48,471 nt of DNA, from contig DAIOGN010000004.1 in the NCBI GenBank assembly GCA_036745245.1, positions 1-48,471 on the forward strand, read 5' to 3'. The DNA is from Candidatus Zixiibacteriota bacterium. GTDB taxonomy: Bacteria > Zixibacteria > MSB-5A5 > JAUVRN01. Shown one piece after another: positions 18,376-37,361 of the stretch. Within the stretch, counting starts at the first letter, position 1. Each line of letters starts with the position of its first letter. The notes under the pieces were generated by a model. That model had not been told where the DNA came from, did no database searches, and worked only from the letters and a program-made list of their open reading frames with translations. The translations under genes were made by a program, and so were the position numbers.

Positions 18376-18376
18376 T

Positions 18377-18423: not shown

Positions 18424-18432
18424 TCCAGGGGC

Positions 18433-19032
18433 TTATTCCTTCAGCACCGCTCCGGGCAGGAGGGCGGCCGCTCCACCGCCGAGCTGCCGCATGCACTTCA
18501 TCACTTTTGGCAGCGGCACATCGAGCGGACGCACGCGATCCTCTGACATGAAAAACACGGACCCCGAGCGGGCGTTGGGCGCCCCCGGGATATACACAGC
18601 CAGATGGCCGGCTTCCAGTCGCTCCACCAGAAACCCGAGCTGCCAGGCGTCTTCGATGCGCGCCAGCACGGGTTTGGCGAGCGATTCATCCTCCTCACCG
18701 GCGGCACTGCGCGCCACGCTCTTGAGGAGCAGGTAGCCAGGGACATGGACGAGGATATTGTCTTCCAGCCATTGCGTGGCCTTCCTGGCTTTGTGCCTTC
18801 CGGCCAACAGGCCCGCCAGAAAGCAGACGAGGATCAGGAACACCACACCCGCCAGCCGGATGGCCACGGGGTAGCTCAGGGCTGCCACGGGAAAGTTCTC
18901 CAAAAGCGGCGTCACGATCTTCATGGCGAGCTGGTGGGCCTTGCCCAGGATGGCCAGCCCGATCACGACGGGGACGAGGAACAGTGCGCCGCCCACCAGA
19001 GTGGCTTTCAGGAATCGGATAGCGCTTTTCAT
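18433..19032 (-). CDS. DUF502-family membrane protein
   Basis: 199 aa with AAGGAG RBS. Two N-terminal TM helices, PGY..LK motif and ..IPGAPNARSG..F.. motif, typical of DUF502. Confidence 0.7.
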   Translation of the reverse strand: MKSAIRFLKATLVGGALFLVPVVIGLAILGKAHQLAMKIVTPLLENFPVAALSYPVAIRLAGVVFLILVCFLAGLLAGRHKARKATQWLEDNILVHVPGYLLLKSVARSAAGEEDESLAKPVLARIEDAWQLGFLVERLEAGHLAVYIPGAPNARSGSVFFMSEDRVRPLDVPLPKVMKCMRQLGGGAAALLPGAVLKE

Positions 19033-19136
19033 GTGTGTCTCCTTGGATGACCCGGATTAGTCAAACGCGAAGCTAGTGCGATGCGAGAAGGCGGGCATCA
19101 GGAGTCGACTCCCGCCAGTGGGCGCGGGAACGACTC

Positions 19137-20648: not shown

Positions 20649-20650
20649 GA

Positions 20651-23600
20651 TCAATGCCCCTTCGGCGCAGCGTGACCCGACGATTCACCGGCATCCTTCG
20701 GCGCCGGCGGCCTGGCCCTGGTCAGGTACGTTTCCACCATGACGTACAGCATGGGGATGAGCAGCACGCCCAGGGCAGTGGCCACCAGGAGCCCTGCGAA
20801 TACCGCCAGGCCCATCACCTTGCGCGATTCCGCTCCGGCGCCGGCGGAGGTCACCAACGGCACCACGCCGAGGATGAACGCGAACGAGGTCATGAGAATC
20901 GGGCGCAGTCTCAGCTTGGCGGACTCGAGCGCCGCGTCCACCGCGCTGGCGCCGGCTTCGCGCTTCATTTTGGCGAATTCCACAATCAGAATGGCGTTTT
21001 TGGCCGACAGGCCGATCAACGTCACGAATCCGATCTGCGCAAACACGTTGTTCACGTAGCTGTCGGAGAAGAAACGCATGACCCACAGCCCCAGCATGGC
21101 GCCGAACAGCACGAACGGAGTGGAGAGCAACACGCTCAAAGGCAGGCTCCAGCTCTCGTACTGGGCGGACAGGATCAGGAACACAAACAGCAAGGCCGCC
21201 GCGAACACCACGGCCGCCGTGCCTGCGGCCTTGATCTCCTGGTACGACATGTTGGCCCAGTCATACGACCAGCCGGGCGGCAAGGTCGTGCTCGCTACCG
21301 CCTGCAGGGCTGCAAGCGCCTGCGTTGACGTGTACCCGGCGGCGGGCACCCCCGTGATCTCAGCCGATCGATACAGGTTGAAGCGGTTGGTGAACTCCGG
21401 TCCGGTGATAGGCCGCATGGTGACCAGCGCAGACAGGGGCACCATCGCGCCCGTGTTGCTGCGCACGAAGAACTGGCCCAGGTCCCAGATGTCATTGCGG
21501 TACTCCGCCTCGGCGGAGACGTACACTTTGTACACGCGGCCGAAGCGGTTGAAGTCGTTGATGTAGTTGGCTCCGAGCAACGTGCCGAGCGTGGTGTTCA
21601 CGTCGGCCAGGGAGGCGCCGGTCTTCAGCACCTTGTCGCGGTCTATGTCGGCGAACAACTGCGGCACCCCTGAGCGGTAGAACGACGCGATGCGACCGAT
21701 CTCGGGCCGTTTGCGGGCTTCGGCGATGAAGTTCTCGGTCTGCTCCTGGAGCTGCTGGGGCGTACCGCCGGACTGGTCCTGGATGAACATCGTAAAGCCA
21801 GCGCCTGTGCCCAGACCCTGAATGGCGGGCGGACCGAAGGCGTACACGATGGCCTCCGGGACGTCCTGCGCGAAACGCTTGTTCAACGTCTCGACCAACT
21901 CAAACGAGCGATCCTCGATGTTGGGTCGATCATGCCAGGGCTTCAGCGAAACAAAGAACGTGCAGAAGTTGGAGGCTACCGTGTTGGTCATGATGTTCAA
22001 ACCCACCACGGTGGTGTAATACGCGATCGCCTCCTCTCCGCTCAGGATGGCCTCCACCTGGCGCGAAACTGCGTCGGCTCGCTGCATCCCGCTGGCGTCG
22101 GGAAGCTGCACGCTGATCAGGAAGTAACCGTTGTCCTCCTCCGGCACGAACCCGCCCGGCACGATGCGGAACAGGCACACGATCCCCACCATGAGCACGG
22201 CGATGAAAATGAGGCTGCGTGCCATTTTGCGGATCAGGATGCCGGTGAACCCCACGTACCCGCCCGTGAAGCGGTCGAAATGGCGGTTGAACCATTTGTA
22301 GAAGGGATCCAGAAATGACTTCGACTGCCCCTTGGGCTTGAGCAGCATGGCCGCCAGGGCCGGGCTCAGCGTGAGGGCGTTGAACGCCGAGAAGAGCACC
22401 GAGATGGCGATGGTGATCGCGAACTGCTGGTAGAGTCGCCCCGTGATGCCGCTGATGAACGCCACAGGAACAAACACAGCCGCCAGGATGAGTGCGATGG
22501 CGATCACCGGCCCCGACACTTCCTTCATGGCCTGGAGCGTGGCTTCCTTGGGGTTCATGCCGTGTTCGATGTTGTGCATCACCGCTTCCACCACCACGAT
22601 GGCATCGTCCACCACGATCCCGATGGCGAGCACCATGCCCAAGAGCGACAGCGTGTTCACCGAAAAACCCAGAAGCGGAAACACGATGAACGTGGCCACG
22701 AGCGACACGGGCACGGTGAGCAGCGGAATGAGGGTGGCGCGCCAGTCCTGCAGGAAGATGAACACGACCAGGATCACCAGGAGCACGGCCTCGAAGAGCG
22801 TGTGAATGATCTCGGTGATGCCTTCCTCAATGGCGAGAGTGGTGTCGAGCGAGATCTCCTGCACGACATCGGGAGGAAAGCGCTCCGACAGGCGATGCAT
22901 CGTCTCCTTGATGCTTTCGGCCACCTCGAGGGCGTTGGACCCGGGAAGCTGATAGACCGCGATCACGGCGGCGGGACGGCCGTTGCTGCGGCCCACCTGG
23001 TTGTACAGGAGCGTGCCCAGCTCCGTACGGGCCACGTCGCGCATGCGCACCTGCGATCCGTCGGGATTGGTGCGGATGACGATGCGGCCGAACTCCTCAT
23101 CGTTCATGAGGCGTCCGGAGGTGCGCACCGTATAGGTGAACTCCGTCCCGGGAGGCGCCGGCGGACCGCCCACCTGCCCGGCCGGGGAGATCACGTTCTG
23201 ATCCTGCACCGCCTTGATGATGTCGGGCACCGTGAGGCCGAGGCCGGCCAGCCGATCGGGCTTGAGCCACAACCGCATGGCGTAGTCCGAACCGCCGAAC
23301 AGCTTGACGTCGCCCACGCCCTTGGTGCGTGAGAGCAGGTCGTTGATGTTGATGGCGGCGTAGTTGGAGAGGAAGTTGTTGTCGTAGGTGCCATCGGGTG
23401 AGGTGAGCGTTACCAGAAGCAGTGGGAACACCAGCGACTTCTTCACCGTCACGCCGTAATTCTTCACGGGCGTCGGGAGCGAAGCCTGCGCCTGCGACAC
23501 GCGGTTCTGCGTGAGCACGTTCGACATGTCCAGATTGGACCCCACGTCGAACGACACCTGAAGCGTCAGCGTGCCGTCGTTGGCGTTGATCGACTTCATG

Positions 23601-23830
23601 TAGATCATGTTTTCAACGCCGTTGACCTGCTGCTCCAGCGGCGTGGCCACCGACTGCTCCACGTCCACGGACGAAGCGCCCACGAAGGTGGTGGTCACGT
23701 TGATCATGGGAGGCACGATGTCGGGGAACTGCGCGATCGGCAGTCCCTTCATCACAATGAGGCCGACCAGCACCATGACGATGGAGATCACCATCGCCAC
23801 GATGGGCCGGTTGACGAAAAACTTCGCCAT
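20651..23830 (-). CDS. RND multidrug efflux permease (AcrB/HAE1 family)
   Basis: 1059 aa. MAKFFVNRPIVAMVISIVMVL.. N-terminus and 12-TM AcrB architecture. Confidence 0.95.
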   Translation of the reverse strand: MAKFFVNRPIVAMVISIVMVLVGLIVMKGLPIAQFPDIVPPMINVTTTFVGASSVDVEQSVATPLEQQVNGVENMIYMKSINANDGTLTLQVSFDVGSNLDMSNVLTQNRVSQAQASLPTPVKNYGVTVKKSLVFPLLLVTLTSPDGTYDNNFLSNYAAININDLLSRTKGVGDVKLFGGSDYAMRLWLKPDRLAGLGLTVPDIIKAVQDQNVISPAGQVGGPPAPPGTEFTYTVRTSGRLMNDEEFGRIVIRTNPDGSQVRMRDVARTELGTLLYNQVGRSNGRPAAVIAVYQLPGSNALEVAESIKETMHRLSERFPPDVVQEISLDTTLAIEEGITEIIHTLFEAVLLVILVVFIFLQDWRATLIPLLTVPVSLVATFIVFPLLGFSVNTLSLLGMVLAIGIVVDDAIVVVEAVMHNIEHGMNPKEATLQAMKEVSGPVIAIALILAAVFVPVAFISGITGRLYQQFAITIAISVLFSAFNALTLSPALAAMLLKPKGQSKSFLDPFYKWFNRHFDRFTGGYVGFTGILIRKMARSLIFIAVLMVGIVCLFRIVPGGFVPEEDNGYFLISVQLPDASGMQRADAVSRQVEAILSGEEAIAYYTTVVGLNIMTNTVASNFCTFFVSLKPWHDRPNIEDRSFELVETLNKRFAQDVPEAIVYAFGPPAIQGLGTGAGFTMFIQDQSGGTPQQLQEQTENFIAEARKRPEIGRIASFYRSGVPQLFADIDRDKVLKTGASLADVNTTLGTLLGANYINDFNRFGRVYKVYVSAEAEYRNDIWDLGQFFVRSNTGAMVPLSALVTMRPITGPEFTNRFNLYRSAEITGVPAAGYTSTQALAALQAVASTTLPPGWSYDWANMSYQEIKAAGTAAVVFAAALLFVFLILSAQYESWSLPLSVLLSTPFVLFGAMLGLWVMRFFSDSYVNNVFAQIGFVTLIGLSAKNAILIVEFAKMKREAGASAVDAALESAKLRLRPILMTSFAFILGVVPLVTSAGAGAESRKVMGLAVFAGLLVATALGVLLIPMLYVMVETYLTRARPPAPKDAGESSGHAAPKGH

Positions 23831-25350: not shown

Positions 25351-26340
25351 ATGGGTATGAAAGCCATCGCGCATAGCCACTACGGCCCTCCCAGCGTGCT
25401 TCGAGTCGAAGAGAGGGATTCCCCTTCCATCGGCAGCGGTGATGTGCTGGTGAGAGTGAAGGCCGTGTCCCTGAATCCTCTCGACTGGCACTTCCTTCGG
25501 GGCGAACCGTTCCCCATTCGGCTTGCATTGGGATTGAGAAAGCCGGGTGCCCAACGCCTCGGTGTAGATTTTGCGGGGACGGTGGAGAAGGTCGGAGCAG
25601 GTGTAACACAATTCAAGCCGGGCGATTCTGTGTACGGAGGGAGACCTGGCGCTCTCGCCGAATACCTGAGCGTTCCCGAACGCATTGTGTTGTCCATGCC
25701 CGCCAATCTCACATTTCAGCAGGCGGCCGCCGTTCCGGTGGCAGCCCTCACGGCGCTGCAAGGATTGCGCGACAAGGGGAGACTGCAAGCCGGGCAGAGC
25801 GTGCTGGTGAACGGCGCTTCAGGAGGGGTGGGAACGTTCGCGATTCCCATAGCCAAACACCTCGGCGCCGAAGTCACCGGAGTGTGCAGCGGCAGGAATG
25901 TGGAGCTGGTCCGCTCCCTCGGCGCGGATTTTGTCGTGGACTACAGCCGTGAGGACTTCACCGTCGGCGGAGGGCGCTACGACGTGTTGCTGGATTGCGT
26001 GGGGAATCGCTCGTTGACCGATTGCAGGCGGGTGCTCAAGCCCACGGGCACGTACGTCATGGTGGGAGGTCCGGGCGGGCGCTGGCTCGGCCCATTGGCT
26101 CGATCCATTCGCATCGTCCTGTGGTCGCCGTTCGTACGTCAGCGGCTGGTCACGTTCATCACCAGCGCACGCAGGGACGACTTACAGTTCATCACAGGGC
26201 TGATCGAGGCCGGAAAGGTCGCGCCCGTGATCGATCGCTGTTACCCGCTGGAGGACGTATCGGATGCGTTCGCGTATCTTGAGGAAGGACATGCCCGGGG
26301 CAAGGTGGTGATCCGCCTCGATCCCGATTCGAGTTCCTGA
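25351..26340 (+). CDS. NAD(P)-dependent medium-chain dehydrogenase/reductase (quinone oxidoreductase-like)
   Basis: 329 aa. VLVRVKAVSLNPLDW.., GQSVLVNGASGGVGTFAI, ..GHARGKVVI. The second ATG at 25357 has better GGAG spacing. Confidence 0.85.
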   Translation: MGMKAIAHSHYGPPSVLRVEERDSPSIGSGDVLVRVKAVSLNPLDWHFLRGEPFPIRLALGLRKPGAQRLGVDFAGTVEKVGAGVTQFKPGDSVYGGRPGALAEYLSVPERIVLSMPANLTFQQAAAVPVAALTALQGLRDKGRLQAGQSVLVNGASGGVGTFAIPIAKHLGAEVTGVCSGRNVELVRSLGADFVVDYSREDFTVGGGRYDVLLDCVGNRSLTDCRRVLKPTGTYVMVGGPGGRWLGPLARSIRIVLWSPFVRQRLVTFITSARRDDLQFITGLIEAGKVAPVIDRCYPLEDVSDAFAYLEEGHARGKVVIRLDPDSSS

Positions 26341-26397
26341 CCCTTCGCGCGAAGAGCGAGAAGACGACGGACGCCTGCAGCCTCGCCCTCACGTGAA

Positions 26398-26458
26398 GAG
26401 CTAAGTCTCTTTTCAATCCTTTGGCCGATTGTACCCGCGGCCCGTCAGGTCGAAGTTG
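26398..26458 (+). promoter_or_regulatory. conserved 61-nt element, copy A (degenerate palindrome; TTGTAC-N17-GAAGTT)
   Basis: Hand-aligned to copies B and C (26/37 identical to C in the 5-prime block, identical 17-nt spacer length). Lies about 147 nt upstream of ATG 26605. Confidence 0.55.
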
Positions 26459-26604
26459 CAGGCATGAAGAAAGAGCATATCGCCTTCTGACTGACTTGAC
26501 CCTGCAAGAGAGGAGCTTGCACTCGGTCGAGTTGTAGAGAACCCAAGAAATCAACCCATGAACCCAATGAGATGCAAATCTCTCTACCAAAGGAAATAGA
26601 AATC

Positions 26605-27675
26605 ATGAGATGTATCAATCCGTTCACGAGGTTACCAGGTGCGGCCGCAGTGGCCGTGCTTTGTTGCACGGCGTTCGTCGCCGGATGTGGAAGCGACGAG
26701 AACGTGGCTGGCCCGAATCCCACTCCCGATACGACGGCCCCCACCGTGTTATCCACCAACCCCATCAATGGCTCCACCGGCGTTGCGGTCATCAACGTGA
26801 CCTTCAGTGAGCCCATGGCGTCCGCCTCCGTTTCGGACGTGTCGTTTACCCTGACGGGCCCCGGGCTGACGCCCGTGGCGGGCGTGGTGACCTACGATGC
26901 CCCCAACAACCGGGCGTCGTTTGTGCCCTCCAGCGCCCTGACGGCGGCCACCTCGTACAAGGCCACCATCATGACCGCTGTCAAAGACCGAGCGGGCAAC
27001 GCTCTGGCCAACAACTATGTGTGGGATTTTGTGACCAATTTAGCTTCGACGATACAACCGCCGGAAGTGCTGGCATCCAGTGGCGGGTTCGCGGTCCTGG
27101 CCGGCGCCTCCATCACCAGCACGGGCATGACGCGGATCACCGGAGGAGTGGGGCTGAGCCCGGGCACATCCCTGACCGGCTTTCCGCCCGGCATCATCGT
27201 CGGCACGAAACACGTGGCCGATCCGGCAGCAGCTCAGGCCAAACTTGATCTGACCACAGCCTACAACGGCTCCGCGGGGAGGACTCTGAGTCCCGTGTCC
27301 GTGGCAGGCAACATCGGCGGGATGACGCTCCCGCCCGGACTTTACAAGTCCACCTCATCGCTCGAGATTTCGTCCGGAGATCTCACTCTCGACGGCATGG
27401 GGAACGCCAATGCGGTGTGGGTATTCCAGATCGCTTCGACCCTCACCACGACCTCCGGCCGCAAGGTGATTCTTGCCGGCGGTGCGAAGGCCAGCAACAT
27501 CTTCTGGCAGGTGGGTACATCGGCCACTCTGGGAACGACGTCTGTTTTCAAGGGGACCATCATGGCGGATCAGTCTATCACCATGAATACCGGTGCGACG
27601 CTGGAAGGACGCGTCCTTGCACGGACTGCATCGGTCACATTGAACGGCAACACCATCGTCGTTCCGGCCATCTAA
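26605..27675 (+). CDS. lipoprotein with Ig-like (SbsA/Big_5-like) domain and DUF3494 ice-binding-like domain
   Basis: Start MRCINPF..FVAGCGSDE (lipobox). DTTAPTVLSTNPINGSTGV.. Ig-like module. Then ..FAVLAGASITSTG.., NIFWQVGTSATLGT.., FKGTIMADQSITMNTGATLEGRVLA, typical of the DUF3494 beta-helix. Confidence 0.8.
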   Translation: MRCINPFTRLPGAAAVAVLCCTAFVAGCGSDENVAGPNPTPDTTAPTVLSTNPINGSTGVAVINVTFSEPMASASVSDVSFTLTGPGLTPVAGVVTYDAPNNRASFVPSSALTAATSYKATIMTAVKDRAGNALANNYVWDFVTNLASTIQPPEVLASSGGFAVLAGASITSTGMTRITGGVGLSPGTSLTGFPPGIIVGTKHVADPAAAQAKLDLTTAYNGSAGRTLSPVSVAGNIGGMTLPPGLYKSTSSLEISSGDLTLDGMGNANAVWVFQIASTLTTTSGRKVILAGGAKASNIFWQVGTSATLGTTSVFKGTIMADQSITMNTGATLEGRVLARTASVTLNGNTIVVPAI

Positions 27676-27738
27676 ACTAAAGGGGAAAGATCGGATCGAT
27701 CGCGGGACCGACACGATCCGATCGAGGTTGGACGCAAG

Positions 27739-27770
27739 GCGCCCGAGAGCTTCTCGGGCGCTTTGCTTTT
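27739..27770 (+). terminator. Rho-independent terminator
   Basis: GCGCCCGAGA / TCTCGGGCGC 10-bp stem with a 3-nt loop, followed by TTTGCTTTT. Confidence 0.75.
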
Positions 27771-27837
27771 ATGGAACAGCGAGACGTCGTGTGCACACCC
27801 TGCGAAGCCAGCGCCAGCACCAGCACACGCCAGACAG

Positions 27838-27898
27838 GGGCTAGTTCTCCTTTCAATCCTTCGACGGATTGACGCGAGCGTCGCTTCGATCGAACTTC
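27838..27898 (+). promoter_or_regulatory. conserved 61-nt element, copy B (TCAATCC-N6-GGATTGA palindrome; TTGACG-N17-GAACTT)
   Basis: 34/37 identical to copy C in the 5-prime block, same 17-nt spacer. Lies about 127 nt upstream of ATG 28025. Confidence 0.6.
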
Positions 27899-28024
27899 AT
27901 ACCGTAGGTGGAGGACTCTCCCTCGGAAGCCCGAGGAGCTTCAGGGCGATCTTCCACTTTTCTCGGGAGCATTCATGGTGAGCGCTTCAGACAACATCGA
28001 CGAATCTCAGAAAAGGGAGTTCAC

Positions 28025-28657
28025 ATGTTAAAGTTAGTAGGCAGTTTGTTCCTGTCCATCGCCGGCGCGATCTGCATTGCGTCCTGTGATACGGGAAGCA
28101 CCACTGAAATAGATGCGACCGTCAGTAACGCCACCGTAAGCAGGCATGTTACCATGGCGGCCAATACGCCCATCGACATCACGCTGGTCGACTCGATCGA
28201 CACCGATGTTCAAGTCACCGGCGATCGTTTTCGTGCCCGGTTGAACCGGCCCATCGTCGTGGACGGCTACACCGTGTTCGTGGACGGCGCAGGCGCCCGA
28301 GGGGTACTGAACAAGGTCGTGGAGTCGGGTCACCTCAAGACCCCGGCGGAATTGAACTTCACGCTGACCGAAATCCAGATCGAAGGCGGCCGTTGGGTCT
28401 CCGTGGGGACCAACACCATACTGGAGAAGAAGGCCTCGCATACGAACCGCGAGGTGGCCATGATCGGCGGCGGTGCGATCGTCGGTGGCATCATCGGCAA
28501 GGTCATTGACAAGCAGGGGAGCACCGAGATCGGTGCAGTCACCGGCGCAGCCGTGGGCTTGGGCCTGGCCGCCGCGACGGGCAAACAGGACATCTTCCAT
28601 GGAGTGGGTACGCAGATCACGTTCTTTTCGAGTCAGTCGACGCGAGTCTCCTTGTGA
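28025..28657 (+). CDS. lipoprotein with C-terminal glycine-zipper segment (paralogue of 36174-36815)
   Basis: AAGGGAG RBS. MLKLVGSLFLSIAGAICIASC lipobox. GGGAIVGGIIGKV..GAVTGAAVGLGLAAATG Gly-zipper. Confidence 0.75.
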   Translation: MLKLVGSLFLSIAGAICIASCDTGSTTEIDATVSNATVSRHVTMAANTPIDITLVDSIDTDVQVTGDRFRARLNRPIVVDGYTVFVDGAGARGVLNKVVESGHLKTPAELNFTLTEIQIEGGRWVSVGTNTILEKKASHTNREVAMIGGGAIVGGIIGKVIDKQGSTEIGAVTGAAVGLGLAAATGKQDIFHGVGTQITFFSSQSTRVSL

Positions 28658-28848
28658 ACACGACGCTGCGGCCCCTTGGGAGAAAGCAAGAGCTGCCTCG
28701 GACACTAGGCGTGATTCTGCTCCTGGTGTGGGCTTTGGCCCTGGCTCTGGCCCCAAGCAAAACGATGAGTGAATTCGTTCACGTACTGATCGTGGGGGCC
28801 GCAGCGGTTGTGCTTTTCAGACTCATCAGCGGCAGGCGATGGGCGTGA
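28654..28848 (+). CDS. lmo0937/DUF5670-like small two-TM membrane protein
   Basis: GTGA start/stop overlap with the upstream gene. ..GVILLLVWALALA..FVHVLIVGAAAVVLFRLISGRR aligns with the paralogue at 35874-36023. Start could also be GTG 28711. Confidence 0.65.
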   Translation: MNTTLRPLGRKQELPRTLGVILLLVWALALALAPSKTMSEFVHVLIVGAAAVVLFRLISGRRWA

Positions 28849-28876
28849 TGCGAAACCCTTTAAGAAAGGAACAGTC

Positions 28877-29107
28877 ATGAATACTATGTCTATAGTCGGC
28901 GTGATTCTCATTGTGCTCGGTGTGGTGGGACTCGTGTACGGAGGCATCACCTACACCACGCAGGAGAACCTGATCGACCTGGGAGATCTTGAGGTGAAAG
29001 TCGATCAGGAGAGAAGAATCCCGTTGCCGCCCATCGGCGGAGCGGCAGCCATGGCGCTCGGGATCGTGTTGCTGTTCGTCGGGCGGCGCCAGCCCGCGCG
29101 CGCGTGA
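28877..29107 (+). CDS. small two-TM membrane protein (DUF3185-like)
   Basis: AAGGAA RBS. MNTMSIVGVILIVLGVVGLVYGG...GGAAAMALGIVLLFVGRRQ. Family name tentative. Confidence 0.6.
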   Translation: MNTMSIVGVILIVLGVVGLVYGGITYTTQENLIDLGDLEVKVDQERRIPLPPIGGAAAMALGIVLLFVGRRQPARA

Positions 29108-30585
29108 ACGGCCCGGGAGCAGGCCGCATGGCGTTGAGCGTATCCGCCTGCGTTGCCCTGCTTGCGCTCTGCCTGGGTGCGGGTCTTGCCGGCTGCGCCG
29201 TCAACCAGGCCACCGGCGAACGGCACCTGGATCTGATCGGGAAGCAGGGTGAAATCGCCATGGGGCAACAAGCGGACACGCAGATTGTCGCAAGTCTTGG
29301 GGTCGTCCCCAGCGCAGACTTGCAACGCTATGCTCAGGATCTGGGCACGAAGCTCGCCGAAACCTCGGAGAGACCCGAGCTCCCCTGGACCTTTCGGGTC
29401 ATCGACGACCCGACGGTCAATGCCTTCGCGGTGCCGGGTGGGTTCATCTACGTCACACGCGGGTTGATGACGTACGTGGATAATGAGGTGCAACTGGCCG
29501 GGATCGTGGGGCACGAGATCGGGCACGTGACTGCGCAGCACTCCGTGCACCGTATGTCTGCCGATCAGTTGACGCAGGTGGGCGTGATGGCCGGGATGAT
29601 CCTCATTCCGGAGCTACAGAAATTCGGGGGGCTGGTCGACGCCGGGCTGGGACTCCTGTACTTGAAGTTCAGTCGCGACGATGAGACCCAGGCCGATCAG
29701 CTGGGGCTCCGTTACATGGTGAAGGCGGGGCAGGATCCACGCCAGTTGATCGAAGTGTTCGACATGCTGGCCCGCGTCGGCCAGACGGCCGGCAGCGGAC
29801 GCCTCCCCGAGTGGCTTGCAACGCACCCAAACCCCGAGAACAGAAGCCAGCGTATCCAGACAGAATTGGATACGTTCACCACGAACCTGAGCGCCCTTTC
29901 CGTACATCGGAACGATTATCTTAGCCTGATCGATGGTATGGTATTTGGTCCGAACCCTCGTGAGGGGTTCTTCCGCGCCCAGCACTTTTATCAGCCCGAG
30001 ATGGAGTTCGAATATGAATTCCCATCAGGCTGGCAGACGGCGAACATGAGGGATGCGGTGGCTGCGGTGAGTCGCGACCAGGATGCCATCGTGCAAATCA
30101 CGCTGGCACAGGGTGTCTCCGGCCTGAAGGCCGCCCAGCAGTTCTTCGGGCAGGAGGGGCTGCAGTCGGAGAGCCTCGAACACAAGACACAGAACGGCCT
30201 CCAGACGTATTCAGCCGGTTTCCGTGCGCAAACAGAAGATGGAGTGCTGCGGGGCAGAGCGTCGTTCGTCGAGTACAAAGGACTCACCTACCGGTTGCTT
30301 GGCTACACCACCGAACCCCTCTGGTCAAAGTATCAGAGCAGCCTGGGGGGGTCCATGGGGACATTCCGGCAACTCACCGATCCTCAGATTCTGCAGGTAC
30401 AGCCCTTGCACCTCAAGATCCTCACGGTGACTGCCCCGTCGACCCTGGCGGCGCTGGCTCAGCAACACGCCTCCCCGGTGCCGCTTTCGACCCTGGCGAT
30501 CATCAACCAGATCGAAGAGACTGCCAGTGTGAAGACGGGCGATCGAATCAAAATGGTGATGGGAGTGCAACTGGCCGTCCGGTGA
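29104..30585 (+). CDS. M48-family zinc metallopeptidase lipoprotein (BepA/LoiP-like)
   Basis: GTGA overlap start, or ATG 29128 (MALSVSACVALLALCLGAGLAGC). HEIGH zinc motif (GHEIGHVTAQH), downstream ..ETQADQLG... Confidence 0.85.
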   Translation: MNGPGAGRMALSVSACVALLALCLGAGLAGCAVNQATGERHLDLIGKQGEIAMGQQADTQIVASLGVVPSADLQRYAQDLGTKLAETSERPELPWTFRVIDDPTVNAFAVPGGFIYVTRGLMTYVDNEVQLAGIVGHEIGHVTAQHSVHRMSADQLTQVGVMAGMILIPELQKFGGLVDAGLGLLYLKFSRDDETQADQLGLRYMVKAGQDPRQLIEVFDMLARVGQTAGSGRLPEWLATHPNPENRSQRIQTELDTFTTNLSALSVHRNDYLSLIDGMVFGPNPREGFFRAQHFYQPEMEFEYEFPSGWQTANMRDAVAAVSRDQDAIVQITLAQGVSGLKAAQQFFGQEGLQSESLEHKTQNGLQTYSAGFRAQTEDGVLRGRASFVEYKGLTYRLLGYTTEPLWSKYQSSLGGSMGTFRQLTDPQILQVQPLHLKILTVTAPSTLAALAQQHASPVPLSTLAIINQIEETASVKTGDRIKMVMGVQLAVR

Positions 30586-30605: not shown

Positions 30606-31556
30606 TTACCCCGCCTGGTCGGAACGTTCAAGCCAGTTCAGCATCGCGGTGATACTCCCCGTGGCCAGGCCGATGCTGGTGTCGGCCGCTCCATAGTACA
30701 GATGCAGGGTGTCGCCATCGGGTAAGATGGTGTAGCCGCAGGGAAACACCACATAGCCCACGTCGCCCTGCAGTTCGTAGGGCGCTTCCGGGCCAAAGAC
30801 CCACTGACTGCCGCGCTTGAGGCACCGATCCGGGTGATTCAAGTCGAACAAGGCGAGCCCGACTCGGTAGAGGGCACCCGCGGCCGTGTGTCGCACTCCG
30901 TGGTAGATGACGAGCCAGCCCTTTGGAGTTTCAATCGGCGGCGGTGAAAGACCAATCTTGTTGGCGTCCCACCACCCTCCGCGTCGAGCTTCCATCATGA
31001 GCTGGGGTCCGCCCCAGTGCGTGAGATCGGGAGAATACGAAATCCACATGTGAGCGCGGGCCGAGCTCACCGGCCGGTGAATCAGCGCCCACCGACCGTC
31101 GATGCGACGTGGCAGGAGGGTCGCGTCTTTGTCGTCTGGAGACATGATGATCCCATGGCGCCTGAAGGTGCGGAAGTCGGCGGTGGTGGCCAGCGCCACG
31201 CCCGGTCCTTCGCGAGTGAAAGCCGTGTACACCACGACGTACTCATTCAGCTCGGGAACGAAGGTGATGCGGGGATCCTCAATGCCCCACAATTCCTCAG
31301 GATAGTTCTCGGGGTCAGGCATCAGAGTGGGTTTCGGATCGATCTGCCACCCGTCCACGCCGTTGGTGGAGCGGGCCGCGCACAGATGCGAGTGCCCTGT
31401 CCGGTCCTCCACGCGGCACAACAAGAGCGTCGTGCCGTCGGCCAGCAGGGTGGCGCCGGGATTGAACACGCTGTGGACGGGATAGGGCCAGCCGGCTGCC
31501 GTGAGGATGGGGTTGTGCCGGTGGCGTTTGAACAGCTCGGGGTGAGTAACATTCAT
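30606..31556 (-). CDS. GH130-family glycoside phosphorylase/hydrolase (DUF377-type)
   Basis: 316 aa. NPILT..VFNPGA.., GIEDPRITF motif. No signal peptide. Confidence 0.8.
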   Translation of the reverse strand: MNVTHPELFKRHRHNPILTAAGWPYPVHSVFNPGATLLADGTTLLLCRVEDRTGHSHLCAARSTNGVDGWQIDPKPTLMPDPENYPEELWGIEDPRITFVPELNEYVVVYTAFTREGPGVALATTADFRTFRRHGIIMSPDDKDATLLPRRIDGRWALIHRPVSSARAHMWISYSPDLTHWGGPQLMMEARRGGWWDANKIGLSPPPIETPKGWLVIYHGVRHTAAGALYRVGLALFDLNHPDRCLKRGSQWVFGPEAPYELQGDVGYVVFPCGYTILPDGDTLHLYYGAADTSIGLATGSITAMLNWLERSDQAG

Positions 31557-33838
31557 CTGGAGAGCGTCTCCGCAGGATAAAACGAGTTTTCTGCCAGTCG
31601 CAATTCCAGCAGGGATTGGAGGAAGGCGAGAGTGGACTCTGCGCCGAGGTTTTCGTTGGGCCGATCGGGGTGCAGACCATCACGACATCCCCCCGTGGTG
31701 GGATCGTAGATGGAGAGGTTCAGATCGTTGCGCCCGAGAAACCACTCGAACGCGCGCTGGGCTTCCTTTCGCCAGCGGTTGTCCCGGGTGATTCGATAGG
31801 CTTCGAGACACGCAGACACCATGGCCTGGCCCTCCACCGGCTGCTGGTCGAAGCGGGCGCGCTCACCCCCTTTTCTGTAGAAGCCGTTTGAGCCGATGGG
31901 AACGAAGTGCCCTCCCTTGCTGGCTCGCTGGATGTCGCTCAGCCAGGCCAGCGATTCCAGTCCGGCTTCCATCATGGCCGTACTTTGAACGGATTGTCCA
32001 CAGATCAGCGATGCATGCGGCAACACGGCGTTGCAATAGGTCAGCCCCTCTTCGTACCAACGCCAGTCGTCGGTGCGACAACGGCGATACAGAGATAAGA
32101 GTCGCTCGGACAATTGCTCCTGGACCTGGCTGGCGCGCCGATCGCCCGCGAAACGTTTCAAGTATTCGTGGATACCCAGGAGCCCGAAGGCCCAGGCCCG
32201 TGGACTGGTGGTATCGACGATGGCAGGCAGAGCCCGCTCGAACAGCCAGCCTGCCATGCTCTGAAGTGCCGGTGTGTGAGAGCGGCCCATTACAGTACCC
32301 AGGGCCCACAAGGCACGTCCATGGCTGTCGTCTGAACCGCTCGTCTCCAGCCAGGTCCGCTGGTAGGTCATGAAATTGCGAAAACGGCCGTTCTCGGAGC
32401 TGTAGGCGTACCAGAGGAACCCGAGGTACCGTGAGGCCAGTTCGACGGCGGCCTCCTGGCCCACATCCTCCAGAAGAGCGCTTACGATGAGAGCACGAGC
32501 ATTGTCGTCGGTCGTGTACCCTTCGTGGTAGTTGGGGATCGTGAAGATGGCGTGCTGCAGAATGCCGGTTTCGTCGGTCATGTGGCGCAGATGATCCAAC
32601 CGCAAGGGCGGTAGTTCCCCCGGATGCTTGTCGAGAGCCTTGACCGTAAATCCCGGGCTGCTGAAGTGCCTGCGTTCCGCCCGGGCGCGTTCGAAGGTTT
32701 CGAAATAGCGGCGCGCCACCTGAGTCCAGACCATGTCCCGGCCGAACAGGTAGGCCCGCTTGCGCATCGCATGGCGCCCGGCTTCGTCATTCAACAGCCC
32801 GATCACTGTCTGTCCCATGGCTACAGAGTCTTTGAATGGCACCAGCACCCCTCTCTCCTGGGCCAGCATCTCTTCGGCGTACCAGTAGGGCGTGGAAACG
32901 ACCGCCTTGCCTGCACCCAGTGTGTACGCCAGGGTGCCCGACGTGATCTGGGCCAAATTGAGGTAGGGAGTGATGTAGATGTCCGCGGCGCCGATGAATT
33001 CAATCAGCTCTTCCAGACTGACAAAACGGTTGTGGAAAATTACGTGGCCCTCCACGCCCCGTTCTCGAGCCAGCCATTGCAAGGACAGTCGGTAGGCCTC
33101 TCCGTCCACTTCCTTTACATGAGGATGGGTTTCGCCCAGGATGATATAGACCACCTGTGGATGAACTTCCAGAATTGCCGGGAGGGCTTCAATTACATGC
33201 TCGATTCCCTTGCTGGACGAGAGCAGCCCGAAGCTGAGCAGGACCATCTTGCCTTCCACCCCAAACAGATCCTTGTGGAAGCTGGGATCCACGAAGGGGA
33301 CATCCGGGATGCCGTGGGGAATCATGTCGACTTTGTTCTCGGGGATCTGGTAGATCTCCTTCAGGAAGACTTTTGCGCGTTCGCTCATGACCACCAGGCG
33401 GTCTGATAGATCCGCAATGTCCTTCAGCACCGATCGCTGATCGGCGTCCGGTTCGGCCAGAATGGTGTGAAGCGTGGTGACCGTGGGCATGCGCAACTCG
33501 CGCAGCAAAGCCAGGATGTGACTTCCAGCCCGGCCGCCGAAAATGCCGTACTCATGTTGCAGACACACCAGATCGACATTGTTGATGTTGAGAAAGTCTG
33601 CCGCCCGGCGATAGGAATTGATGTCTTTCTCTGTGAGCTCAAAGCGGACGCGGGCCGGGTATTCGTAGCCCTCCGCCGTGTCATTCACCGGAAGTGCGAT
33701 GCAGGTGGTGCCCTCACGCTCAGCCGCCACGGCCTCGCACAGGTCGGTGGTGAACGTGGCGATGCCGCACCGGCGCGGCATATAATTGCCGACAAAGGCA
33801 ATGCGCCGGAGGAGGGGCGTGGGTGGGCCGGACTGCAA
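31553..33838 (-). CDS. GT4 glycosyltransferase fused to a C-terminal (alpha/alpha)6-barrel-like domain
   Basis: 761 aa. The N-terminal half is GT1/GT4-like (..EYGIFGG.., ..GTLAYTLGAGKAVVSTP..). The C-terminal ~350 aa is helical-repeat, W/Y-rich. 4-nt overlap with the GH130 gene. Confidence 0.8.
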   Translation of the reverse strand: MQSGPPTPLLRRIAFVGNYMPRRCGIATFTTDLCEAVAAEREGTTCIALPVNDTAEGYEYPARVRFELTEKDINSYRRAADFLNINNVDLVCLQHEYGIFGGRAGSHILALLRELRMPTVTTLHTILAEPDADQRSVLKDIADLSDRLVVMSERAKVFLKEIYQIPENKVDMIPHGIPDVPFVDPSFHKDLFGVEGKMVLLSFGLLSSSKGIEHVIEALPAILEVHPQVVYIILGETHPHVKEVDGEAYRLSLQWLARERGVEGHVIFHNRFVSLEELIEFIGAADIYITPYLNLAQITSGTLAYTLGAGKAVVSTPYWYAEEMLAQERGVLVPFKDSVAMGQTVIGLLNDEAGRHAMRKRAYLFGRDMVWTQVARRYFETFERARAERRHFSSPGFTVKALDKHPGELPPLRLDHLRHMTDETGILQHAIFTIPNYHEGYTTDDNARALIVSALLEDVGQEAAVELASRYLGFLWYAYSSENGRFRNFMTYQRTWLETSGSDDSHGRALWALGTVMGRSHTPALQSMAGWLFERALPAIVDTTSPRAWAFGLLGIHEYLKRFAGDRRASQVQEQLSERLLSLYRRCRTDDWRWYEEGLTYCNAVLPHASLICGQSVQSTAMMEAGLESLAWLSDIQRASKGGHFVPIGSNGFYRKGGERARFDQQPVEGQAMVSACLEAYRITRDNRWRKEAQRAFEWFLGRNDLNLSIYDPTTGGCRDGLHPDRPNENLGAESTLAFLQSLLELRLAENSFYPAETLSR

Positions 33839-34100: not shown

Positions 34101-34129
34101 TTGACGAGGCTGTCCGACTTTCGTAGATT
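34101..34129 (+). promoter_or_regulatory. candidate sigma70-type promoter of the response regulator (TTGACG-N17-TAGATT)
   Basis: Hexamers read directly. Preceded by GGA, giving the same GGATTGACG 9-mer as elements B and C. AGGAGG RBS at 34163-34168. Confidence 0.35.
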
Positions 34130-34177: not shown

Positions 34178-34990
34178 ATGCCGAAGTCCCGAACCGCACT
34201 AAAGACCCGAGGGGTACTAAAGACCCGAACCGCACTAGAGACCCGAACCGCACTAAAGACCCGAGCCGCACTAAAGACCCGAGTCGCACCGACGATCCGG
34301 GTGCTTTTGATAGAGGACAATCGCCTGCTACGCGAAGGCGTCACCGCCATGCTCAATGACCAGCCGGACATCAAGACCGTCTCGTCAGCCGGCAATGGAG
34401 ACGCGATGGAGAAGGCGAGAACGTTTAAGCCTCATGTAGTGTTGCTTGACCTGGGCCTGAGAAGCCAGAACAGCCTGAAGATTGCGGAGCACGTCAAGAG
34501 AGAGTTTCCGAAGTGCGAAGTGGTGCTGATGGACCTGATTCCCATACACAGCGAGGTGGTCGAGTTCGTGAAACTGGGCGTGTCGGGCTTTATCCTGAAG
34601 GACGCCACCATCGACGACTTCTTGCACACGATACGCTCGGTGGCTGAAGGCAAGAAGGTGCTGCCGCCGCTCCTCACCGAGACCCTGTTCTCTCACATCG
34701 TCAAGTACGCGCTTCAGACCGGGAAACACGATACCGTGCTCAGGGCGGTGAAACTGACCAGACGTGAGCAGGAAATCATAGGCCTGATTGCGAGAGGGAT
34801 GAGCAATAAGGAGATTTCCGGCGAGCTCAGCATTGCCGTCCATACCGTGAAGAGCCATGTCCACAACACGCTTGAGAAACTGGCTCTTCACACCCGCCTG
34901 GAATTAGCCAGCTTTGCCCTTAGACCAGATTCCAAGGTCCAGGCCGGTCTGCAGCGCCTCGATTCATCGCTCTCGACCCCTCTCTTGTAA
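34178..34990 (+). CDS. NarL/LuxR-family response regulator (REC + LuxR HTH) with N-terminal hexapeptide repeat extension
   Basis: ATG 34178 lies 9 nt after AGGAGG. REC motifs IEDN, VVLLDLGL, GFILKD. C-terminal LTRREQEIIGLIARGMSNKEISGELSIAVHTVKSHV. No histidine kinase nearby. Confidence 0.85.
   Translation: MPKSRTALKTRGVLKTRTALETRTALKTRAALKTRVAPTIRVLLIEDNRLLREGVTAMLNDQPDIKTVSSAGNGDAMEKARTFKPHVVLLDLGLRSQNSLKIAEHVKREFPKCEVVLMDLIPIHSEVVEFVKLGVSGFILKDATIDDFLHTIRSVAEGKKVLPPLLTETLFSHIVKYALQTGKHDTVLRAVKLTRREQEIIGLIARGMSNKEISGELSIAVHTVKSHVHNTLEKLALHTRLELASFALRPDSKVQAGLQRLDSSLSTPLL
34188..34295 (+). repeat. 18-bp tandem repeat x6 (last copy degenerate), in frame within the regulator N-terminus
   Basis: Units CCCGAACCGCACTAAAGA at 34188, 34206, 34224, 34242, 34260 and 34278. 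They encode (T/S)R(T/G/A)(A/V)L(K/E) x5. Confidence 0.9.
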
Positions 34991-35051
34991 GAGCTAGTTC
35001 TTCTTTCAATCCTCCGACGGATTGACGTTCCCCTGTGTCTCCCCGAAGTTG
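34991..35051 (+). promoter_or_regulatory. conserved 61-nt element, copy C (TCAATCC-N6-GGATTGA; TTGACG-N17-GAAGTT)
   Basis: Begins at the nucleotide after the regulator stop codon (TAA 34988-34990). Confidence 0.6.
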
Positions 35052-35087
35052 GTTTAGAGGCCAGGCCATCCCTGCTTCGAGTCGAAG

Positions 35088-35672
35088 ATGGCCACCTCGG
35101 GGCCGATGGCAGCCCGCATTGGGCGGCCCGGCACCCTCCAGCCGCCCCGGGGCTCATTGGCTCCCGGGGCGGGCGGACCAAACGTAAGACAGGGACAGGG
35201 GTACTGTGAGGCAGGAGCGATGGAGTCAAGGAATCCGACGGCGTGGGGAAGACGGTCACGTCGGGACAAGGACCCGCCACGGGAGCCACCACGAGGTGCT
35301 TCCGTGGCAGAGGACAAGCCGCTCACTCCAAAAGCCCGGAGCCAAACCGAGCAGAGCGCAATTCCGAACGAGGTTGAACGCGATGTCAATTGCAGCGAAT
35401 CCGTTCCGCATCTGCCCGCCGTGTTTCGGTCGGCCATGATCCTGTCCCATCTGGAGGGATTCTCCGCTTCGGAAATCGGTCGGCTGGCCGGCGTTCAACC
35501 TCGAGCCATCGAATCATTGCTCGTTCGCGGTCGCGAGCTGATGCGGGAAGAGTTCAGGGCCTACGTGAAGAGCTTTGACGACGCCAATGAAATCGCGAAT
35601 CGGGCCGAGGATTCGCTCGGGCCGCCGGAGCCGGGTGGTGCGCCAGCCTCCGTGGAATTGGACGAACCATGA
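35088..35672 (+). CDS. sigma-70 region-4 (ECF-type HTH) domain protein lacking a recognisable region 2
   Basis: LPAVFRSAMILSHLEGFSASEIGRLAGVQPRAIESLLVRGRELMREEF matches ECF sigma region 4. The N-terminal ~100 aa is Arg/Pro-rich and low complexity. Start uncertain (ATG 35088, 35106 or 35220). Confidence 0.5.
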   Translation: MATSGPMAARIGRPGTLQPPRGSLAPGAGGPNVRQGQGYCEAGAMESRNPTAWGRRSRRDKDPPREPPRGASVAEDKPLTPKARSQTEQSAIPNEVERDVNCSESVPHLPAVFRSAMILSHLEGFSASEIGRLAGVQPRAIESLLVRGRELMREEFRAYVKSFDDANEIANRAEDSLGPPEPGGAPASVELDEP

Positions 35673-35873
35673 CTTCCTGGTGGGCCGATCGCTTGCCGAT
35701 CGCATGGAGAGGCCCACGACTCCGAAGCATGGTCACGTTGCTGCCGCAGGGAACAGGCATCGCAGAACAAAGGCTTTCAGTTTGAATCGAAACAGGGTGC
35801 CGATGGGCCGCCTTCCAATCACGGCAAGCGCCGGTCGGCATCGCACGTTAGGAAACCAGATGAGGAGAGTCGT

Positions 35874-36023
35874 ATGTTGTGGACACTGGCTGTAATACTA
35901 TTCGTCCTGTGGGCGCTTGGCTTGACGGCGGGCTACGCCCTGGGTGGCTTCATTCACGTACTGATCGTGGTGGCCGTGGTGGCTGTACTCTTCAGGCTCA
36001 TCACCGGACGGCGGATCGCATGA
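35874..36023 (+). CDS. lmo0937/DUF5670-like small two-TM membrane protein (49 aa; below the ORF-track cutoff)
   Basis: GAGGAG RBS 5 nt upstream. MLWTLAVILFVLWALGLTAGYALGGFIHVLIVVAVVAVLFRLITGRRIA. Confidence 0.75.
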   Translation: MLWTLAVILFVLWALGLTAGYALGGFIHVLIVVAVVAVLFRLITGRRIA

Positions 36024-36173
36024 AGCTGGCTGGGTCGAGATGGATGCGTGCCTGAGCATTGTACCTGTCACGTGCGTACGTCTGATCCTGCCTGCCGCAG
36101 TGTGGGTCATTCGCGGAGACATCGCCTGTGCGTCGGCCACTCGCGTGGCCGACGTGAGAACAGAGTTCATACG

Positions 36174-36815
36174 ATGAACACGATTTGGTGGCTGCCCTTT
36201 TGGCCGCTGGTGCTCTTCATCGCATCCTGCAGCGACGGGTACACAGCCGTCCAGCAGGCCAGCACGACACGGGCCGAAGCCATGTGGAACACCACAGCCT
36301 ACGTCACGATGCTGAGGAATACGGCCATCTCCGTGACGCTCGCGGACTCCATCGACACGGATGTTCATCGGACAGGCACGGAGTTTCGAGCCACGCTGAC
36401 ACAGCCCATCGTCGTGGACCTGGACACCGTGTTCGCCGTCGGTGCCGGGGCCAGGGGCATTCTGAGCAGTGTGATCGAGTCCGGCGGACGCAGGTTCCGC
36501 GCCGAATTGCAATTTGGCCTCACGGCCCTCCAGAACTCCAGAGGGCAGTGGATCCGAATCGGTACCCACACGATCCAGGAGAGACGGGCCACAAGCACCA
36601 GCAAGAAGATCATTCTGGTGGGAGGTGGCGGCATCGTCGGTGGCATGGCGGGCACGGCCCCGGACTGGTATGGTAGTGCTGGGAGCGGTGCGAAACCCGG
36701 TGCCACCACCGGCCCGGATGTTCCATCTGCTCGACCCAGGCAGGGGATCTTTCATGGACCCGGTACAGAAATCGTCTTCTTTTCAAACGAATCGACGCGG
36801 ATTGCGCTGAGATAG
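36174..36815 (+). CDS. lipoprotein, paralogue of 28025-28657 with a degenerate Gly-zipper
   Basis: MNTIWWLPFWPLVLFIASC lipobox. The core VTMLRNTAISVTLADSIDTDV..GAGARGILSSVIESG is identical at 40/61 hand-aligned positions to the paralogue. Confidence 0.7.
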   Translation: MNTIWWLPFWPLVLFIASCSDGYTAVQQASTTRAEAMWNTTAYVTMLRNTAISVTLADSIDTDVHRTGTEFRATLTQPIVVDLDTVFAVGAGARGILSSVIESGGRRFRAELQFGLTALQNSRGQWIRIGTHTIQERRATSTSKKIILVGGGGIVGGMAGTAPDWYGSAGSGAKPGATTGPDVPSARPRQGIFHGPGTEIVFFSNESTRIALR

Positions 36816-37246
36816 CGCATGGTCGTGCGGCCCGGTGCTCGGAGTCGCCTGCACACTGCAGTGAGCCCTTGTTGATCCAGGCCGCGGTGGCTATTATCAC
36901 CCGCTACTCAGATCAATCGGCAGCGCCTCCGGTATAAATCCGGCAAAAAAAGTGGATTCAATTCAGCCTGGAGCACAACCGGCTGAATGGCAAGCCGGTA
37001 GCCGGGGCGGCCGGGGCCACGCGGCCCTCCAGCCAGGCAACCGCGATCACCACCGGGCGTAATCTTCATGGGGGGGTGAAACGCAAATGGACCCCTGAAC
37101 CCGACTTACGGGTTGGGCAAGGGGGCCATCGCACCGTATACTCCCGCCAGTTCACTGTGGACCATCACGACGATTCGGCGTCAAACCTGAACCGCATGCT
37201 GCGATGGTCGCGACTTGACAACCTGAACGTCGACAAGGAGTCTGAA

Positions 37247-37357: not shown

Positions 37358-37361
37358 CCCG

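Follow-up and report, generated by a model that had tools for sequence, protein, structure and literature searches.

The stretch of DNA analysed here (the window; 48,471 nt, from a Candidatus Zixiibacteriota bacterium) carries three copies, A to C, of an intergenic element of ~65 bp which, to judge from its sequence and that of its relatives, is probably a sigma70-type promoter joined to an operator that is controlled, and probably activated, by a NarL-type response regulator. The motif, its geometry and its orientation are conserved in other genomes, where it is coupled to regulator genes of one clade and precedes recurring sets of genes. Positions in the element are given as offsets from the C of its CTA (offset 0), which is located at 26401 in copy A, 27841 in copy B and 34994 in copy C.

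26387..26465, + strand: copy A, 5' of the gene of an ice-binding-like protein (nhmmer E=1.3e-12)
26397-26408 and 26413-26432, + strand: palindrome 1 and palindrome 2 (TCAATCC-N6-CGATTGT) of copy A
26429-26434 and 26452-26457, + strand: -35 box (TTGTAC) and -10 box (GAAGTT) of copy A, with a predicted start at ~26464
27827..27905, + strand: copy B, 5' of a lipoprotein/DUF5670/small membrane protein/M48 operon (nhmmer E=8.4e-12)
27837-27848 and 27853-27872, + strand: palindrome 1 and palindrome 2 (perfect 7-6-7) of copy B
27869-27874 and 27892-27897, + strand: -35 box (TTGACG) and -10 box (GAACTT) of copy B, with a predicted start at ~27904
34980..35058, + strand: copy C, between the response-regulator gene and an open reading frame (ORF) with sigma region 4 (nhmmer E=2.1e-11)
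34990-35001 and 35006-35025, + strand: palindrome 1 and palindrome 2 (perfect) of copy C
35022-35027 and 35045-35050, + strand: -35 box (TTGACG) and -10 box (GAAGTT) of copy C, with a predicted start at ~35057

A first-pass annotation made from the sequence alone had placed three copies here, all on the + strand, intergenic and 5' of a gene on that strand, and both a reading of the sequence and a mismatch search agreed with it on every copy. Using GCTAGTTCTYCTTTCAATCC with up to 3 mismatches, matches were obtained in the window at 26400, 27840 and 34993 alone, all on the + strand, while 100 dinucleotide shuffles gave 0 matches (0 expected by chance vs 3 observed). A fourth copy was not detected in the window with a relaxed hidden Markov model (HMM) scan, also not 5' of the divergent gene for a GT4 glycosyltransferase. 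The identities counted earlier by hand were exact, at 34/37 for B vs C and 26/37 for A vs C, and the boxes TTGTAC, TTGACG and TTGACG, the 17-nt spacer and the boxes GAAGTT, GAACTT and GAAGTT were in place in A, B and C, respectively. The spacers of B and C have only 4/17 positions in common. In B and C, TCAATCC-N6-GGATTGA is a perfect palindrome, while A shows 2 mismatches. The GAAsTT boxes occupy offsets 51-56 and retain A2, T5 and T6; the first -10 position is G, not T, in all three copies. The limits originally given to the element were correct as to the boxes, but the conserved part reaches further 5', to about offset -14, and this 5' part, GGAnCTAGnTCC, is an imperfect palindrome itself. 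Copy C starts 3 nt past the stop codon of the response-regulator gene.

All predictions of the first-pass annotation that lent themselves to in silico testing held true. Further copies and conservation in relatives, which had been named as a check on the proposal, were found both at orthologous positions and across phyla. One genome per species of GTDB was scanned with the pattern CTANNTCNNNTTTCANNCNTNNGNNNGATTG, which has 18 specified bases, over 1.2e12 positions. This strict scan yielded 79 loci vs ~17 chance matches estimated for all genomes. Almost all of the loci are in metagenome-assembled genomes (MAGs) of the Fibrobacteres-Chlorobi-Bacteroidetes (FCB) group and their conservation reaches beyond the pattern, while two or three (e.g. 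L042, L090) look like chance matches. The carriers belong to Zixibacteria, Ignavibacteria/Melioribacter, Calditrichia, KSB1, Marinimicrobia, Latescibacteria, Krumholzibacteria, Gemmatimonadota and Chitinivibrionia, together with MAGs labelled 'Bacteroidetes'. An HMM built from the pattern matches and scanned over the retrieved loci revealed 140 unique copies, often 2-4 per 8 kb. The start of a same-strand ORF was present within 450 nt downstream in 129/140 copies, at a median distance of 127 nt; 16/140 copies are located inside a long stop-free stretch.

Homologs of the lipoprotein encoded downstream of copy B are numerous, and their contigs share a conserved gene cluster. It specifies two REC-GerE response regulators (RR1 and RR2), a sigma factor of the extracytoplasmic function (ECF) type, the lipoprotein, a 161-aa protein, BON or outer-membrane proteins, DUF5670, a 79-aa protein, M48, and ice-binding-like and OmpA proteins. 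Here the element occupies the gaps RR1-RR2 and RR2-sigma, and it is also found 5' of SpoVG and outer-membrane protein genes. The proteins of the Zixibacteria-like clusters are 60-75% identical to those of the window, yet the element is found at orthologous positions. The 'compact regulon' suggested at first is neither compact nor private to the source genome; it spans many phyla of the FCB group. Repeats of the REP (repetitive extragenic palindromic) or MITE (miniature inverted-repeat transposable element) kind occur in many copies and in either orientation, are not tied to genes and are not kept at orthologous sites of distant taxa. A dispersed repeat was rejected on these grounds: the copies are co-oriented with the downstream ORF and recur before orthologous genes (RR2, sigma, Ice_binding, GT4) across phyla.

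The consensus of 94 copies anchored on the pattern is ..T....c.aa.Ga.CTA..TCcttTTTCAttCcTttG..cGATTGa, followed by a variable stretch and ta..tT. A TAnnnT box starts at offset 51 in 67/140 copies and at offset 50 in 25/140 (92/140 together), and any other offset accounts for ~3 copies. As TTG is fixed at offsets 28-30, the geometry of the family is TTGAnn-17-TAnnnT, the canonical sigma70 arrangement. Conserved boxes around a variable spacer of fixed length, 17 nt, with a -10-like box at the end, as first described for the window, are a property of the whole family, and the GAAsTT of the window aligns with the family -10 box. In a GC-rich soil lineage, CAGGTT, CAACTT or TAGGTT (nAsCTT/nAGGTT) is found at the -10 offset. 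Sigma70 promoters combine a TTGACA-like -35 and a spacer of 17 +/- 1 bp with a TATAAT-like -10 that has A at position 2 and T at position 6. The TTGACG-17-GAAsTT of the window has the TTGAnn -35 and the 17-nt spacer, and A2 and T6 are kept. Transcription from sigma70 promoters starts 6-8 nt 3' of the -10 box, and the core of the element would consist of TTGAnn at offsets 28-33, an unconstrained 17-nt spacer, a -10 at offsets 51-56 and a start near offset 63. In L123, a member of the GC-rich soil lineage, the conserved ATG of the downstream gene is at offset 64, near this predicted start; an in-frame GTG at offset 58 is also a possible start codon. Should the ATG be the genuine one, the mRNA would be leaderless, lending some independent support to the start assignment. 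The RR1 genes of relatives have TTGAC(G/A)-17/18-TAnnnT promoters without the element (TTGACG-17-TATAnT in use), which indicates that canonical promoters are used by these organisms. For the same reason, the 'GGATTGACG half' that had been recognized at the regulator's own promoter in the window is just the -35 hexamer of a TTGACG-17-TAGATT sigma70 promoter.

The two palindromes lie in the 5' half of the element. Palindrome 2 (TCA(A)yCC-N6-sGAT(T)GA) is centred at offset 21.5, ~-42 of the predicted start, and overlaps the -35, so that the palindrome seen from the first at a lux-box-like position is indeed located there. Palindrome 1 (GGAnCTAGnTCC) is centred at offset 1.5, ~-62 of the predicted start. 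Positions ~-42 and ~-62 are those of class II and class I activators such as CRP, FNR, LuxR and TraR; the centres agree with the class II position (-41.5/-42.5) and the optional class I position (-61.5/-62.5), an agreement that hinges on the predicted start. The operator would thus comprise the two imperfect palindromes. Orphan RR1 (34178-34990 in the window), when phosphorylated and possibly together with RR2, would bind both of them as dimers and recruit RNA polymerase to the weak sigma70-type core, acting as a class II plus class I activator; transcription would begin at the predicted start. In the window, an envelope/stress regulon would be switched on that consists of the ice-binding-like lipoprotein, the lipoprotein/DUF5670/M48 operon and an operon of a sigma remnant, DUF5670 and a lipoprotein. 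In relatives, the element would also drive the paralogous regulator RR2 and the ECF sigma, giving a regulatory cascade. A possible division of the motif into TCAATCC and TCATCC classes that track the regulator subtype was discarded: both classes are present in one genome and no simple rule emerged.

The link with the regulator is seen from both sides. Starting from the element, 43/140 copies, copy C among them, begin ~20-60 nt past a same-strand homolog of the NarL-type regulator. This order of regulator and element recurs in at least 6 phylum-level groups (Zixibacteria, Ignavibacteria, Krumholzibacteria, Latescibacteria, Chitinivibrionia and Gemmatimonadota). The element-linked regulators have 49-78% identity to the window protein, and their recognition helix, TVKSHVHN(T/I)LEKLAL, is nearly invariant across phyla. 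In the reciprocal test, a metagenome scan was performed with the window regulator as the query and homologs with enough flank were counted. The element was found within ~80 nt downstream of 18/19 homologs that are >=70% identical, and anywhere in the locus of 0/32 homologs with <45% identity. Homologs of 54-57% identity carry a CATCC-N7-GGATG variant, in which both arms are changed together and which the HMM missed. Regulators of the NarL/FixJ family join a receiver domain with a phospho-acceptor Asp to a C-terminal GerE/LuxR HTH. The window regulator belongs to this family: Pfam Response_reg and GerE are above their cut-offs, and the acidic pocket (IEDN) and VVLLD are present in the alignment. 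Its closest solved structures are VraR, NarL, DesR and DevR. It has no named ortholog, as no NCBIfam equivalog cut-off was reached. It is closer to RR1 than to RR2 of the relatives. The element is present 5' of RR2 and of the sigma gene and not 5' of RR1, a pattern that is expected if RR1 tops the cascade. The NarL/LuxR-type regulator put forward in the first-pass annotation is the best candidate for the factor, given the physical coupling of its gene with the element in both directions.

Downstream genes of an envelope or stress type were noted early on in the window, and the same was observed in other genomes. Among the first ORFs downstream of the element are those for REC + GerE regulators (16-19), sigma-like proteins (14), baeRF_family3 (8), Ice_binding (6) and OMP_b-brl (6). 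Others specify OmpA/TSP3 proteins, CsbD, YtxH, AI-2E transporters, many uncharacterised small proteins and a large GT4 glycosyltransferase homologous to that of the window (31553-33838). Five copies besides A are located 5' of Ice_binding genes. CsbD, YtxH, BON, DUF883, Gly-zipper lipoproteins, OmpA and SpoVG are hallmark general-stress proteins. As deduced from the predicted products, the target set has an envelope and general-stress flavour. Outside Zixibacteria, baeRF_family3, a bacterial homolog of archaeo-eukaryotic release factors, is the commonest gene directly after the regulator and element (L024, L025, L027, L028, L036, L055, L074 and others), which suggests a link of the regulon with ribosome or translation rescue.

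Several observations weigh against control of the element by this regulator in the way proposed. The adjacency of gene and site is a correlation only, and a sensor kinase was not seen near the regulator. About 97/140 copies are not beside a regulator gene, as expected of regulon members, and for these the regulator is a candidate factor only. Half-sites are ~9 bp apart in the left palindrome and ~13 bp apart in the right one, and because of this difference in geometry one protein may not read both. The right palindrome of Ignavibacteria is a hybrid, TCATCC / CGATTGA, which means that strict dimer symmetry is not conserved. A site that overlaps the -35 could serve repression equally well. In a subset of copies, those 5' of RR2 and the sigma gene, CGTA is present just before or in the -10 box and resembles an ECF -10.

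The last of these points is the starting point of an unlikely alternative, namely that the element is the autoregulated promoter of an ECF-type sigma, with GGATTGA as the -35, CGTA as the -10 and the conserved upstream block as an accessory site. In relatives, the ECF sigma gene is located directly 3' of one copy (the L005 sigma is above the TIGR02937 cut-off) and CGTA follows GATTGA after 17-18 nt in the copies 5' of RR2 and the sigma gene, which resemble the SigW-type promoter TGAAAC-N16-CGTA. The box reads CGAA in the window, where sigma region 2 has been lost. ECF promoters combine a -35 with AAC and a -10 with CGT, ~16-17 bp apart. The box of the family as a whole (140 copies) is TAnnnT, not CGT, at sigma70 spacing from TTGA; CGTA is confined to the subset mentioned and an AAC-type -35 is absent, so that an ECF promoter was rejected as a general reading. 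Moreover, the most conserved bases are 5' of the -35 and outside a sigma's reading, 15 of the 79 genome loci have an adjacent sigma homolog vs 37 with a regulator homolog, and three good copies have been kept in the window despite the degenerate local sigma gene. It is also quite improbable that the promoter is one kept silent by a repressor, either the regulator or another dimeric helix-turn-helix (HTH) protein, that occludes the -35 and is released under stress. The right palindrome does cover the -35 hexamer, and in many copies outside the window the TTGAnn-17-TAnnnT core is respectable and might be active without help. Centres at ~-42 and ~-62 are nevertheless the canonical class II and class I activator positions, the weak -10 (GAAsTT) of the window copies is typical of activator-dependent promoters, and positive autoregulation of the paralog and the sigma cascade fit activation; none of these three arguments is decisive. 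A reader of the element, or of its left palindrome, other than the regulator is very unlikely. The regulator genes would in that case be mere adjoining members of the regulon. RR2 and the sigma gene clearly are targets, most copies are not beside a regulator gene and the half-site spacing differs between the palindromes. Such a protein is difficult to reconcile with the strong reciprocal coupling to one regulator clade and the absence of the element beside other NarL-family regulators, with a recognition helix that is conserved in step with the DNA, and with the lack of an element before RR1 itself, as expected of a top regulator.

That the element acts as an RNA, as a two-hairpin leader or 3' UTR (untranslated region) or as the terminator of the regulator gene (hairpin GGAACUAGUUCC followed by a U-run), is extremely improbable. 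Hairpins can be drawn for both palindromes, the first is followed by TTTTT, often just past the regulator stop codon, and in the soil lineage both arms of the second have been shortened together to CATCC-N7-GGATG. This joint shortening is a single event, as compatible with a symmetric protein dimer as with a hairpin. The left palindrome has a Watson-Crick pair at the variable symmetric position in 38/94 copies, while its arms are kept in sequence (G -3, C +6); approximately half of the copies have TCATCC/CGATTGA as the right palindrome, with two mismatches that are uncompensated. Pair counts and mutual information over 94 copies revealed no covariation in either palindrome. Apparent covariation flanking CTAG (GGAACTAGTTCC / AGATCTAGATCT), seen by eye, was gone on counting. 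Rfam gave no match at the gathering threshold for the whole window, and only noise at E <= 10 for 26300-28100. The RNA leader that had been mentioned as a weaker alternative is thus not supported. A hairpin or pseudoknot of the N6 region with the spacer was dismissed, the complementarity being equal to that of permuted controls and confined to a few orthologous promoters. An intrinsic terminator has a stable GC-rich hairpin directly before a U-run and a stem sequence that is free to vary. The left palindrome has 4-5 weak pairs and is kept in sequence rather than in pairing, copies occur after a real terminator, and a terminator scanner called 27734-27766 but not the palindrome. Finally, the fixed downstream -10 box would be left unexplained by an RNA.

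A GC-rich lineage variant, CTAAGTCGCTTTTCATCC-GGTCGGA-GGATG, was observed in metagenome contigs (L116, L118-L123, L126, L128, L132, L138). Its spacer is filled by a GC-rich hairpin, possibly the terminator of the regulator gene. The downstream gene is conserved and the protein starts with M(K/R)SLWAYAYQIVPPQ. Some of these contigs have an insertion of ~45 nt that separates the CTAG part from the remainder.

Activation of the element by an RR1-type regulator would resemble several known systems. The lux and tra boxes are inverted repeats near -42 that are read by a LuxR or TraR dimer, with class II activation. The element shares with these promoters a ~20-bp inverted repeat at ~-42 that overlaps the -35, a GerE/LuxR-type HTH in the candidate factor and a weak core, as well as a possible second site at the class I position (-62), as at some TraR promoters. 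It differs from them in that the candidate is a phosphorylation-dependent REC-GerE regulator and not an acyl-homoserine-lactone receptor. The sequence of the palindrome is unrelated, a left palindrome and a T-tract are added, and the hosts belong to the FCB group. DevR/DosR and VraR/LiaR are of the same NarL/FixJ family as the candidate, as is reflected in its closest structures. Their palindromic sites are often arranged in tandem at or upstream of the -35, their regulator genes are regulated and their targets concern stress or the envelope. Unlike in these regulons, no adjacent cognate kinase gene is present here, the motif is different (the DosR box is GGGACTTTAGTCCC-like, with a faint resemblance to the left palindrome alone), a paralogous regulator and an ECF sigma are part of the cascade, and the site is kept across phyla. 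In CseBC-SigE of Streptomyces and in the contexts of ECF39, ECF234 and ECF246, as in the relatives, a DNA-binding response regulator is encoded beside the ECF sigma; in the relatives, the sigma promoter carries the regulator-linked element. The element differs from these systems in having two paralogous regulators and many non-sigma genes that are driven directly, and the sigma of the window consists of region 4. Two-component control of ECF sigma transcription is a listed mode of ECF control (PMC7826278). Like the regulons of RpoS, SigB and PhyR-NepR-EcfG, the targets include CsbD, YtxH, BON, DUF883, Gly-zipper lipoproteins, OmpA and SpoVG. Control appears to be exerted by a DNA-binding response regulator at sigma70-type promoters rather than by partner-switching or a stress sigma, and neither an anti-sigma nor a PhyR-like protein was seen here.

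Motifs that are conserved nearly base for base across phyla are uncommon; examples are LexA boxes, CIRCE and sigma54 promoters. To our knowledge, almost nothing is known of gene regulation in Zixibacteria, Ignavibacteria and their uncultured relatives. A published description of the motif or the regulon was not found in the literature searched, which included the ECF reclassification paper (PMC7826278). A response-regulator-dependent promoter is in itself a well-known kind of element, while the regulator clade, the composite site and the cross-phylum conservation appear not to have been described so far. The element offers a testable handle, with one regulator clade, one motif and one predicted start point, and it allows co-switched genes to be read from the sequence alone in the genomes that carry it. 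Among the targets are proteins of unknown function, such as the Gly-zipper lipoprotein family, DUF5670, baeRF-3 and ice-binding-like lipoproteins. The element and the regulator also form a compact candidate pair of inducible promoter and regulator for genetic tools in FCB bacteria. More speculatively, and with considerable doubt, the element, the pair of orphan NarL-type regulators and the downstream ECF sigma might together act as master switch for a response to general stress or for dormancy in much of the FCB superphylum. If so, it would be a counterpart of RpoS, SigB or EcfG that employs a nearly invariant 65-bp composite promoter older than the divergence of the phyla.

The genes and signals around the three copies in the window are the following.

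26572..27675, + strand: gene of a lipoprotein with Big_5 and Ice_binding domains (Pfam), target gene of copy A
27734..27766, + strand: intrinsic-terminator-like hairpin (15-bp stem, then TTTTAT) that ends the transcript of the ice-binding gene before copy B
28025-28657, + strand: Gly-zipper-like lipoprotein (weak Pfam match), in the copy B operon (28025..30585)
28654-28848, + strand: DUF5670 protein, in the copy B operon
28877-29107, + strand: small membrane protein (weak DUF202 and CD20 matches alone), in the copy B operon
29104-30585, + strand: M48 peptidase (Pfam), in the copy B operon
34101..34129, + strand: candidate for the regulator's own promoter, TTGACG-17-TAGATT, of the ordinary sigma70 type without the upstream element
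34178..34990, + strand: NarL/FixJ-family response regulator (Pfam REC and GerE HTH), RR1 ortholog and candidate trans factor
35088-35672, + strand: sigma-like ORF with region 4 only, 3' of copy C (gene set 35088..36815)
35874-36023, + strand: second DUF5670 protein, 3' of copy C
36174-36815, + strand: paralog of the Gly-zipper lipoprotein, 3' of copy C

The labels given to these genes at first were mostly right according to Pfam, except that 'DUF3185-like' for the small membrane protein could not be reproduced. The operon behind copy B needs its own promoter, because the strong terminator at 27734-27766 stands directly upstream; its gene order recurs in relatives. What had been called a sigma-4 protein does contain region 4, and can be described more precisely as what is left of an ECF sigma gene, which relatives have in intact form. 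Using tblastn with five related sigmas, sigma homology in the window was restricted to region 4, at 35274-35615 in the 35088-35672 ORF. The first ~60-100 residues of this ORF are rich in Pro, Arg and Gly and match nothing. Relatives have a full sigma, with regions 2 and 4, in this place. The ORF is thus a gene in decay or else a stand-alone region-4 protein. No sigma was revealed by Pfam scans of 20 other flank ORFs (401-11629 and 37500-48356; those of 11731-23830 were outside the scan).

The leader that follows copy B is homologous to leaders 5' of the sigma gene in relatives, yet it runs straight into the lipoprotein gene. Because of this sigma-type leader, the source genome appears to have duplicated and rearranged the module, with loss of RR2 and sigma from it. 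In at least 10 related genomes, a homolog of this leader (27898-27975) is found 5' of the sigma gene; no sigma follows here. A hairpin at ~27923-27945, GGAAG-loop-CTTCC, is conserved in it, with compensated change in 5/8 pairs, although in few sequences, and the leader may constitute a cis-regulatory RNA of its own.

The regulator ORF has an 18-nt tandem repeat (34184-34289; 5.9 copies, 85% matches) at its 5' end, which specifies a repeated (T/A)ALKTR-like N-terminal extension absent from RR1 orthologs. The genes of the large GT4 glycosyltransferase (31553-33838, - strand) and of a GH130-like protein (30606-31556, - strand) run divergently from that of the regulator. The element stands 5' of the GT4 ortholog in L046, L061 and L063, and not in the window. 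The cluster at 37500-41329 (- strand) specifies a homocysteine S-methyltransferase, a B12-binding corrinoid protein, a Met_synt_B12 activation domain and an MttB-family methyltransferase; it resembles a quaternary-amine demethylation module and has no relation to the element. A 93-aa ORF at 37076-37357 has a highly charged Lys/Gln-rich tail (KGGKKDKQKGQKQKDKKQQEENKKKQQKQQKTP) and no Pfam match, and is followed by a terminator-like hairpin at 37361-37384.

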